DNA from: an uncultured bacterium
Lineage (GTDB): Bacteria > Patescibacteriota > Minisyncoccia > UBA6257 > GWB1-50-10
Reading direction: 5' to 3'
Assembly (NCBI GenBank): GCA_963713955.1
Contig: OY970216.1
Location: 732,562-796,561 of the forward strand
DNA: 64,000 bases
A program made the position numbers and the translations under genes. This document shows, piece by piece, positions 12,465-13,330 of the stretch; positions within the stretch are counted from its first letter, which is position 1, and the number at the start of each line of letters is the position of its first letter. Below the pieces are notes generated by a model. That model saw nothing but the letters and a program-made list of their open reading frames with translations, had not been told where the DNA came from and did no database searches.

Positions 12465-13330
12465 ATTATCCTCCATAAACTTGGAGTTGATGTTCCCACC
12501 GTACGGACGGATTTCCCGTATACGGCGAGCTCAGTGCATTTTTTCCTTCAGTTTGCTCATTTTCAGCAAACCCTCTTCAGTTAAATGATCTCCTTTACTT
12601 ATCATTTCCATCAAGTCGCAGAATATCTTGAAATCGTTCTGCTTGGATGGAAATCTCGGCGGATGTTTCAAGAAAAACGGGATTATTGTTTTTCTCAAAT
12701 CATCTCTGCCGGCTACCTCGTAGCGATAGCAGTTTTGATGATTGGGGCGTTTATCTTTCTGGAAGTAAACGTTCCCGCAGCCGAAGTATTCCTTCAAATT
12801 ATCGAGAATGGTTTTATCCTTCTCTACCAACTTGACGTAGAACCTCGGTTCGGCCTTGGCTCTTCGCTTCACATCGCTGCCCGACTGAGGACCTGCGATA
12901 TGAACCGTGAAACTGCCTTCGCCGTCTATCAAACCGACTATGTATTCAGGGAACATCATTTAATGCATTGAGTGGAGACCTTCATCTTTTAAGACTACTA
13001 TGCTCCAGCTGACTTCTGACGCCGCGTCAGCTTAATTATATCATACTTTTATATGATAACGGCATCAGATCTCCTTGGGTCAGTAATTGAACTTTTTCTT
13101 ACATTCCGAACAAGGTTGTTGTTTACCGATCTTCGCCATGCTCACCGCCTTTTCCATGGCTCGATCAACCTTTCCGCCTCCCGGCGGATCCATTCGGACT
13201 ATAATTTGCCTCCGGATCCTCCATCCACGATCCTCGCGGATCGGGACTATCCTTCGGCTACGCTCCCGTAGATGTACGGGAGGAGAGGATTTTCACTTCT
13301 TAGTTAAATTACCTGCCAAGCGCTTTTATT
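12465..13330 (-). other. intron (~866 bp) in 16S at E. coli position ~1397, carrying a homing endonuclease ORF
   Basis: The conserved ...TGTACTCAC | CGCCCGTCACACCA... is split. Exon sequence resumes at 13331 (gtgagtaca...gaacgtattcaccg). Confidence 0.75.
12531..12959 (-). CDS. LAGLIDADG homing endonuclease (single-motif)
   Basis: 142 aa with the LIDGEGSF motif near the N-terminus, lying entirely inside the 16S intron. Confidence 0.8.
   Translation of the reverse strand: MMFPEYIVGLIDGEGSFTVHIAGPQSGSDVKRRAKAEPRFYVKLVEKDKTILDNLKEYFGCGNVYFQKDKRPNHQNCYRYEVAGRDDLRKTIIPFFLKHPPRFPSKQNDFKIFCDLMEMISKGDHLTEEGLLKMSKLKEKMH

Follow-up and report, generated by a model that had tools for sequence, protein, structure and literature searches.

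The single 16S ribosomal RNA (rRNA) gene of an uncultured bacterium of the Candidate Phyla Radiation (CPR)—GTDB lineage Patescibacteriota; Minisyncoccia; UBA6257; GWB1-50-10—is split at its decoding site by an 866-nucleotide (nt) insertion that is very probably a mobile group II-type intron, equipped with a LAGLIDADG homing endonuclease instead of a reverse transcriptase (RT) and belonging to the family found at position 1400 of CPR 16S genes (16IS9). The sequence analysed, hereafter the window, is a stretch of 64,000 nt from contig OY970216.1 of GenBank assembly GCA_963713955.1 (forward-strand positions 732,562 to 796,561), numbered from its first letter. Evidence for this reading comes from pairing between the intron and both exons, from intron-less alleles that carry the predicted ligated junction, from compensatory changes throughout the RNA and from the conservation of the encoded protein.

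Insertion site and exon guide

Running from ~14699 to ~12340 of the minus strand, the 16S rRNA gene scores 1273 bits against the Rfam model SSU_rRNA_bacteria. Read along that strand, with a slash at each boundary, the sequence across the site runs ...CCUGUACUCAC/AAUAAAAGCGC...GGAGGAUAAU/CGCCCGUCACACC, so that the inserted block occupies window positions 13330..12465 and falls between C1399 and C1400, a placement that we take from the E. coli numbering of the 1392-1406 universal primer site. A first-pass annotation, made from the letters of the window, had already drawn an 866-nt block at 12465-13330 that splits the 16S gene beside C1400, and we recovered the same block on the minus strand. The insertion lengthens the gene to ~2.36 kb and cuts the conserved 1392-1406 segment in two, with everything before C1400 on one side and the remainder on the other. 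Such insertions disturb amplicon surveys and automated rRNA annotation; here, the insertion caused cmscan to set a false 16S 3′ end at 13279. As a separate observation on this gene, its 3′ tail (window 12337-12350, minus strand) reads GGAUCAAUUAAAC and is missing the CCUCC anti-Shine-Dalgarno sequence, as are the tails of some relatives (loci L021 and L023).

Homologues of the encoded protein fall into ~700 clusters, of which the named ones come from CPR/Parcubacteria. A scan of one genome per GTDB species yielded 238 stretches encoding such a protein; the best 80 of the 238 were taken, and 77 of these 80 loci were complete enough to parse. In every one of the 77, the open reading frame (ORF) sits inside an insertion of 820-1063 nt at the identical 16S nucleotide, flanked by ...ACUCAC on one side and (C/U)GCCCGUCA on the other. 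Named hosts of these relatives include Staskawicz-, Azam-, Yanofsky-, Nomura-, Moran-, Magasanik-, Uhr- and Vogelbacteria. By 16S sequence, L001 comes closest, 96-98% identical across the flanks, followed by L003 with 90%.

Intron-less alleles of the same site are also common: at least 120 intron-less metagenome contigs carry the ligated 20-mer CYTGYACTCACYGCCCGTCA, and one of them (L200) holds a 16S gene that is complete, lacks the intron and scores 1403 bits; over 1494 nt it is 88.6% identical to the spliced 16S predicted for the window, with which it is colinear. Removal of exactly 866 nt from the window thus gives a 16S sequence naturally present in intron-less relatives. With same-site insertions in all parsable loci and intron-less alleles bearing the exact ligated junction, the initial description of the block as a 16S intron holds, as does the accompanying remark that intron-interrupted 16S genes are typical of CPR, since the relatives are overwhelmingly CPR/Patescibacteria.

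Both ends of the intron can be placed through a single hairpin loop of domain I (13154-13141), which reads GAAAAGGCGGUGAG and contains the sequence GGCGGUGAG. Its exon-binding site 1 (EBS1), GUGAG at 13141-13145, is complementary to the intron-binding site 1 (IBS1), CUCAC, at the end of the 5′ exon, and both are invariant. Immediately 5′ of EBS1, the delta nucleotide is a G at 13146 (intron position 185), and 13147-13149 are complementary to positions +2 to +4 of the 3′ exon. Covariation between intron nucleotide 185 and exon position +1 is perfect (G in 58 introns whose 3′ exon starts with C, A in eight whose exon starts with U) and gives the highest mutual information of the entire alignment. 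In a larger set, the cases with U match in nine out of nine, from at least two host lineages, and at least four nucleotides 5′ of EBS1 pair with exon +1 to +4 in 72 of 75 introns (five to six nucleotides in 40). At position 1400 of the decoding site, the 16S genes in question (L007, L010, L014, L020, L036, L043, L047, L050 and L076) have U where C is otherwise universal, as do ten intron-less loci among L081-L200; in the intron-bearing U1400 genes, delta has changed from G to A to match.

The loop can accordingly be read as a guide of 9-11 nt laid across the ligated junction CUCAC/CGCC, which fixes both splice sites to the nucleotide and predicts that the mature rRNA reads ...GUACUCAC-CGCCCGUCA across the junction. 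We infer that the 16S transcript must be spliced, a claim strongly backed by intron-exon covariation on both sides of the junction. A 5′ splice site at the GUGYG-like motif, which would leave AAUAA in the rRNA, was rejected: these five nucleotides are missing from intron-less alleles, and among relatives the linker is anything from 5 to 7 nt long.

The guide also bears on an unusual feature of the host rRNA. Position 1396 is U in the window (13334), where E. coli has A, and its partner in helix 28, which we take from the E. coli secondary structure to be position 921, carries the compensating A. All 115 U1396-type 16S genes for which the region is available have A921, whether intron-bearing or not. 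This flip of the closing pair of helix 28, from U921-A1396 to A921-U1396, shows that the exon sequence is genuine rRNA; because A189 in EBS1 matches U1396, it further suggests that the intron is tuned to this host variant. We rejected U1396 as a sequencing oddity or the product of a mis-set boundary, given that it occurs in at least 120 intron-less genes, always with A921, and pairs with A189.

Ribozyme architecture and the encoded endonuclease

A permissive Rfam scan over window positions 12200-13500 (E ≤ 10) returned three group II matches on the minus strand, all sub-threshold and collinear in the proper 5′-to-3′ order (Table 1). The curated cut-off of 35 for one of these models, group-II-D1D4-1, is passed by seven of 20 relatives (36-42 bits). 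A minimum free energy (MFE) fold of the ORF-deleted RNA, made on the single sequence, gave the six-domain layout (I-VI) set out in Table 1. Domain V, of 33 nt, reads UCGCCGUAU-ACGG-GAAAU-CCGU-CC-GUACGGUGG, and its U.G, C-G and G.U pairs are invariant in 66 sequences. The AY expected at the 3′ boundary is present: the window copy ends in AU, the last nucleotide of the family is U in 66 out of 66 and the penultimate one is A in 43. In domain VI, about a quarter of relatives have an A opposite C at position -6.

Several traits point to class IIC, namely the CGC triad, the lack of an EBS2 and a compact domain I; domains I-III together span intron positions 11-357 (~350 nt). A mutual-information scan of the variable exon positions -7 and -10 to -15 found no EBS2-IBS2 partner, and the gamma-gamma′ and epsilon-epsilon′ columns are invariant and so outside the reach of covariation. 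Two other IIC traits are not seen. Rather than an EBS3 in the coordination loop of domain I, the partner of exon +1 lies directly 5′ of EBS1; rather than an RT ORF and a terminator or attC hairpin site, the element has a LAGLIDADG_1 ORF and a site inside a 16S rRNA gene. Placement of the 3′-exon partner beside EBS1 is the IIA (delta) arrangement, unlike IIC. Judged by sequence and predicted structure, the insertion is thus a group II-type ribozyme with an IIC-like catalytic core. An archaeal bulge-helix-bulge intron was considered as well and set aside, the host being a bacterium and the RNA being built around a ribozyme core.

Covariation was assessed on two tool-made alignments, A2 (domains V and VI, 66 sequences) and A3 (domains I-III, 38 sequences), by projecting the single-sequence fold onto each alignment and then curating it by hand; RNAalifold, run on the raw MAFFT alignment of ORF-deleted introns, recovered only partial structure. 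Domains V and VI were 98.4% paired, with compensatory changes at 14 of 22 pairs, against no more than 49% paired in slid controls. Helix 1 of A2, which is domain V, was 99.8% paired with six compensatory pairs and an invariant base; in the domain VI helix, 96% paired, all eight pairs were compensatory. For domains I-III, 89.4% paired, 72 of 86 pairs showed compensatory changes, slid controls stayed at or below 45% and, whatever the measure, all 500 shuffles fell short of the observed values. Within that alignment, helices 1-11 (domain I) were 75-100% paired and nearly every pair was compensatory, the exception being one poorly aligned helix at 45%. Conserved pairing together with compensatory change shows that the RNA structure is under selection and that the element is no dead remnant.

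The loop of domain IV encodes a protein that begins MMFPEYIVGLIDGEGSF and matches Pfam LAGLIDADG_1 with 59.6 bits (cut-off 23.1). Its single domain aligns to each half of the I-PanMI and I-OnuI-type meganucleases in the PDB, with E-values down to 4e-30, in keeping with the first-pass annotation, which had recognised a single-motif LAGLIDADG ORF of 142 amino acids (aa). Residues D12, G13, E14 and G15 are invariant in 25 homologues, as is a C-terminal Met-His, the latter because the domain IV stem overlaps the last codons of the ORF. The ratio of nonsynonymous to synonymous substitution (dN/dS) is 0.048 against L001, synonymous sites being saturated against more distant copies, and the ORF is, on this codon comparison, under strong purifying selection. 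Disruption of the ORF in close relatives had been named at the outset as a finding that would tell against the intron; the ORF is intact in 75 of 77 relatives, and dN/dS is ~0.05. The parser found no full-length ORF in the other two (L024 and L056), which may be decaying copies or contain sequencing frameshifts.

Table 1: Coordinates of the intron, its exons, its predicted RNA domains and its ORF in the window.
Feature	Window position	Strand	Basis and remarks
16S 5′ exon, E. coli 1-1399	13331..14699	-	Ends ...CCUGUACUCAC; Rfam match clean to model position ~1391
A921 of 16S (E. coli U), compensating partner of U1396 in helix 28	13805	-	Reads AAUAGACGG, not AAUUGACGG
IBS1 CUCAC, 16S 1395-1399, U at 1396, last 5 nt of 5′ exon	13331..13335	-	Invariant in 66/66 aligned relatives; complementary to intron GUGAG
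Intron, 866 nt	12465..13330	-	Bounds from intron-less alleles and exon-intron complementarity/covariation
5′-terminal linker AAUAA	13326..13330	-	5-7 nt, variable in relatives; missing from intron-less alleles
Degenerate 5′ motif AAGCG, counterpart of GUGYG	13321..13325	-	A3 columns G23 C24 G25 invariant; variants ACGCG, AUGCG, CCGCG
Domain I, closing stem CUUGG/CCAAG, holds exon-binding hairpin	13074..13320	-	MFE fold; A3 helices 1-11; Rfam D1D4-3 match
Rfam group-II-D1D4-3	13243-13084	-	20.9 bits (cut-off 32)
Exon-junction guide GGCGGUGAG, hairpin loop of domain I	13141..13149	-	Complementary to CUCAC/CGCC
Rfam group-II-D1D4-1, RF01998 (domains II, J2/3, III)	13043-12977	-	23.2 bits (cut-off 35)
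Domain II	13015..13069	-	A3 helix 12 92% paired, 6 pairs changed on both sides; in Rfam D1D4-1 match
J2/3 linker AGUCAGCU	13007..13014	-	Near-invariant block AGAAGTCAGC in A3; aligns to D1D4-1 consensus AGAAgUCAGC
Domain III, conserved CAUAGUA ... GAAGG internal loop	12974..13006	-	Rfam D1D4-1; A3 helix 13 100% paired, 4/4 pairs compensatory
Domain IV basal stem, 5′ strand CUCAAUGCAU	12963..12972	-	Pairs with 12530-12539; relatives CUCA/UGAG vs CUCUA/UAGAG
LAGLIDADG homing endonuclease ORF, 142 aa, domain IV loop	12531..12959	-	Motif GLIDGEGSF, acidic E14; Pfam/PDB matches
Domain IV basal stem, 3′ strand AUGCACUGAG	12530..12539	-	Overlaps last ORF codons (M-H-stop); ATGCA.T..GAG invariant
Rfam Intron_gpII (domains V/VI)	12530-12475	-	24 bits, E = 0.037 (cut-off 40)
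Domain V	12495..12529	-	Rfam Intron_gpII; CGC triad and G.U wobble in lower helix, 2-nt bulge CC, 4-bp upper helix, loop GAAAU
Domain VI	12468..12491	-	3-bp lower stem, 5′-strand AA bulge, 5-bp upper stem; per-sequence folds
3′ tail AAU	12465..12467	-	Final U invariant
CGCC, first four 3′-exon nt, partners of delta region	12461-12464	-	Exon-intron pairing
16S 3′ exon, from C1400 via helices 44-45 to GGAUCA...	12340..12464	-	Sequence reading; colinear with intron-less L200; 3′ end approximate

Proposed mechanism and competing explanations

The precursor 16S transcript contains a six-domain RNA with helices kept by compensatory changes. In the mechanism that we propose, the ribozyme would hold both exons on the guide, free the 5′ exon, ligate the exons and so restore the decoding site. 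For the first step we lean slightly towards hydrolysis rather than branching, because the GUGYG-like motif, itself degenerate, comes after a 5-nt linker and a bulged adenosine is missing from domain VI. Translation from the domain IV loop would supply the 142-aa protein, which as a single-domain enzyme should act as a homodimer; the dimer would cut intron-less 16S rDNA around positions 1395-1405, for which the candidate target reads ...CCTGTACTCACCGCCCGTCACACC..., and double-strand-break repair would then copy the intron in, a case of DNA homing rather than retrohoming. Both activities, splicing and DNA cleavage, we infer from the sequence features described above.

A number of observations weigh against an active, mobile group II intron. 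The window copy scores under the Rfam gathering score in every group II model (24, 23.2 and 20.9 bits). At the 5′ splice site there is no GUGYG, the intron starting AAUAA-AAGCG with GCG alone invariant; the domain V loop, GAAAU, is no clean GNRA tetraloop; and domain VI is without a bulged adenosine, its 3′ strand UGGAG-GAU being fully paired and its sole bulge, AA, lying on the 5′ strand. On the side of mobility, the target DNA is only weakly palindromic, with 6 of 11 positions matching about an axis 2.5 nt 3′ of the insertion point, a modest degree of symmetry for a homodimer, and CPR usually have a single rRNA operon, so that homing would need uptake of DNA from another cell. Among the closest relatives, moreover, the introns diverge roughly in step with the host 16S genes, and long vertical persistence is compatible with the data, fitting as well as, or better than, frequent transfer.

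Partnership of a LAGLIDADG ORF with a group I intron is the usual one, and most CPR rRNA insertions encoding LAGLIDADG proteins are described as group I-like in a recent survey (Tsurumaki et al., 2024; PMC11270868). One relative, L064, even carries such an intron elsewhere in its 16S gene (1144-1393, Rfam Intron_gpI, 55 bits), beside its position-1400 intron. For the window copy we rejected a group I intron as extremely improbable: the search with Infernal group I models that the first-pass annotation had suggested gave no Intron_gpI (RF00028) match with E ≤ 10 anywhere in 12200-13500, the boundary nucleotides do not fit (a group I intron would call for U at the end of the 5′ exon and G at its own end, where C and U are found) and the covarying helices follow a group II layout, domain V included, so that the RNA is group II-type instead. 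It is also highly unlikely that the block is an intervening sequence cut out by host RNases without religation, which would leave a fragmented 16S rRNA, the outcome that the first-pass annotation had named as refuting its reading, or a retained expansion segment. Intervening sequences processed by RNase III are known in bacterial 23S rRNA and the same survey proposes them for some CPR insertions (PMC11270868), but RNase excision would give no role to the conserved ribozyme core, nor to a 9-nt guide to both exons with perfect delta/+1 covariation, and either a break or an 866-nt insert at C1399/C1400 would fall inside the decoding centre. Metagenome-assembled CPR genomes are prone to rRNA misassembly, yet an assembly chimera or a dead 16S pseudogene has a negligible chance of being correct, with the same element at the same nucleotide in 77 independent assemblies, exons that score 1273 bits, compensated helices that are kept and an ORF under purifying selection.

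Loss of self-splicing deserves more room, although we regard it as unlikely: a group II-derived RNA could have come to depend on protein, whether a host factor or its own LAGLIDADG product acting as a maturase. Autonomous activity could be lowered by the deviant 5′ end, by the lack of a branch adenosine and by a domain V loop that is not GNRA; against this, the catalytic elements show no variation, and structural selection acts on all of the domains. The 16S introns of Thiomargarita reportedly self-splice in vitro, according to work by Salman and colleagues from 2012. Some LAGLIDADG proteins do serve as maturases of group I introns, but the LAGLIDADG protein from Leptographium did not help its group II host to splice (PMC4424553). 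The window copy, a clean example with its complete ribozyme, selected ORF and exact splice sites, is a good substrate for work on self-splicing, on the first step and on the cleavage site.

Relation to known introns and genomic surroundings

Beyond CPR and the giant sulfur bacteria, introns are rare in bacterial 16S genes, and group II introns with a homing endonuclease in exchange for their RT are rarer still. In CPR, group II-like insertions were reported only at 16S position 1400 (16IS9), with 53 cases of which 39 encode a LAGLIDADG protein and none an RT (Tsurumaki et al., 2024; PMC11270868). Our element belongs to this position-1400 family reported in 2024 and is no new kind of element: it has the same site, clade and single-domain LAGLIDADG_1 ORF, lacks an RT and gives the same weak or partial Rfam group II matches, and it shows no substantive difference, the classification in that article being by Rfam matches only. 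As the family was flagged in 2024, the window copy adds no new principle. The domain map, exon guide, 5′ linker and domain VI features are not described in the accessible text of that article (PMC11270868). The contiguous guide with perfect delta/+1 covariation, the overlap of the domain IV stem with the ORF and the tuning to A921-U1396 may go beyond the published detail on the CPR family, and are incremental.

A second point of comparison is rns-1396, a family of bacterial IIC introns with LAGLIDADG ORFs known from Thiomargarita and one member of the Saccharimonadota (Liu et al., 2026; PMC13190283). Like the rns-1396 intron of Thiomargarita namibiensis, our element is a 16S group II intron whose domain IV holds a single-motif ORF; both have an IIC-type core, no EBS2 and a 5′ linker, the last being common to all rns-1396 members. 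Moreover, the EBS1 loop UGUG-UGUAC of rns-1396 (their Table S4) also reads as complementary to both exon ends, GUACA/CAC (PMC13190283). Family membership fails on the site: rns-1396 interrupts UUGUACA/CACCGC between 1396 and 1397, 3 nt upstream, with IBS1 GUACA and A1396, whereas the element here lies between 1399 and 1400, with IBS1 CUCAC, and needs U1396. Hosts differ too, being Thiotrichaceae and one Saccharimonadota for rns-1396 and hundreds of Parcubacteria-type CPR for the position-1400 introns. The comparison covered the exon, EBS and IBS strings of Table S4, and the window element may still be a relative of rns-1396. The subclass of such elements is not settled in the literature, given that the Thiomargarita intron was called IIB1 by Zimmerly and Semper (2015) and IIC by Liu et al. 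(2026).

In LAGLIDADG-encoding group II introns of fungal mitochondrial rRNA genes and in rns-1396, a 5′ linker is known to go together with loss of the branch point. This syndrome has been tied to hydrolytic 5′ cleavage, although one such intron was also shown to branch (PMC4424553; PMC13190283). The fungal IIB1 introns, which have 5′-terminal insertions (Toor & Zimmerly, 2002; Li et al., 2011; Mullineux et al., 2010; reviewed in PMC4424553), resemble our element in having a LAGLIDADG protein for RT, in residing in rRNA genes, in splicing 1-33 nt upstream of GUGYG and in having lost EBS2 and the branch-site motif (PMC4424553), and the protein encoded in the window is most similar to fungal mitochondrial enzymes of the I-OnuI and I-PanMI type. 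They differ in being organellar, in their AGC triad and in their mostly double-motif proteins, in contrast to the CGC triad, domains I-III of ~350 nt and single-motif protein found here. Canonical IIC introns such as O.i.I1 of Oceanobacillus iheyensis are likewise small, with a CGC triad, no EBS2 and a hydrolytic tendency (PMC4748821), but have an RT, GUGYG at the splice site, terminator or attC sites and an EBS3 in the coordination loop, where our element has a partner adjoining EBS1, like the IIA delta. I-ShaI, from a CPR 23S group I intron, comes from the same clade, is of the homodimeric LAGLIDADG_1 type and has been proposed to mediate DNA homing; it differs in ribozyme class, host gene and site, and for no other CPR enzyme of this type has target cleavage been shown (PMC11270868).

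We tentatively suggest, at a little under even odds, that the CPR position-1400 introns form a distinct and very large lineage of LAGLIDADG group II introns, marked by an IIC-like core, an IIA-like guide of 9-11 nt, a 5′ linker, no branch adenosine and co-adaptation to the A921-U1396 flip. Its scale is given by the 238 species-level genomes with a match and the ~700 protein clusters. The 2026 census missed this lineage, its bacterial examples being almost only Thiotrichaceae (PMC13190283). Co-adaptation to A921-U1396 may explain why the site lies 3 nt downstream of that of rns-1396.

Elsewhere in the window, the 23S rRNA gene (1560..1, minus strand) has an insertion of its own, of ~283 nt at 1050-1335, near position 228 of the large-subunit model. 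It forms one long, near-perfect hairpin (MFE -145 kcal/mol, z = -12.4), has no Rfam family match and, going by its predicted fold, looks like an intervening sequence or expansion hairpin, not an intron. Just past the 16S 3′ end, at 12040-12215 on the minus strand, lies a long imperfect hairpin (~190 nt; MFE -74.7 kcal/mol, z = -7.6) flanked by AT-rich sequence. It may be a stem for processing or termination, or else a palindromic mobile element. Between the 16S and 23S genes lie ~10.8 kb with, all on the minus strand, two tRNA genes (3778-3707 and 2529-2459), the type IV pilus genes PilC-like (7002-8207) and PilB-like (8231-9949), whose PilB protein recurs in identical form in the Logan assembly of run ERR10755942, and a short ORF (11470-11890). 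The same stretch has pilin-like ORFs in which the segment coding for the N-terminus occurs twice, at ~10500-10560 and ~11277-11340.

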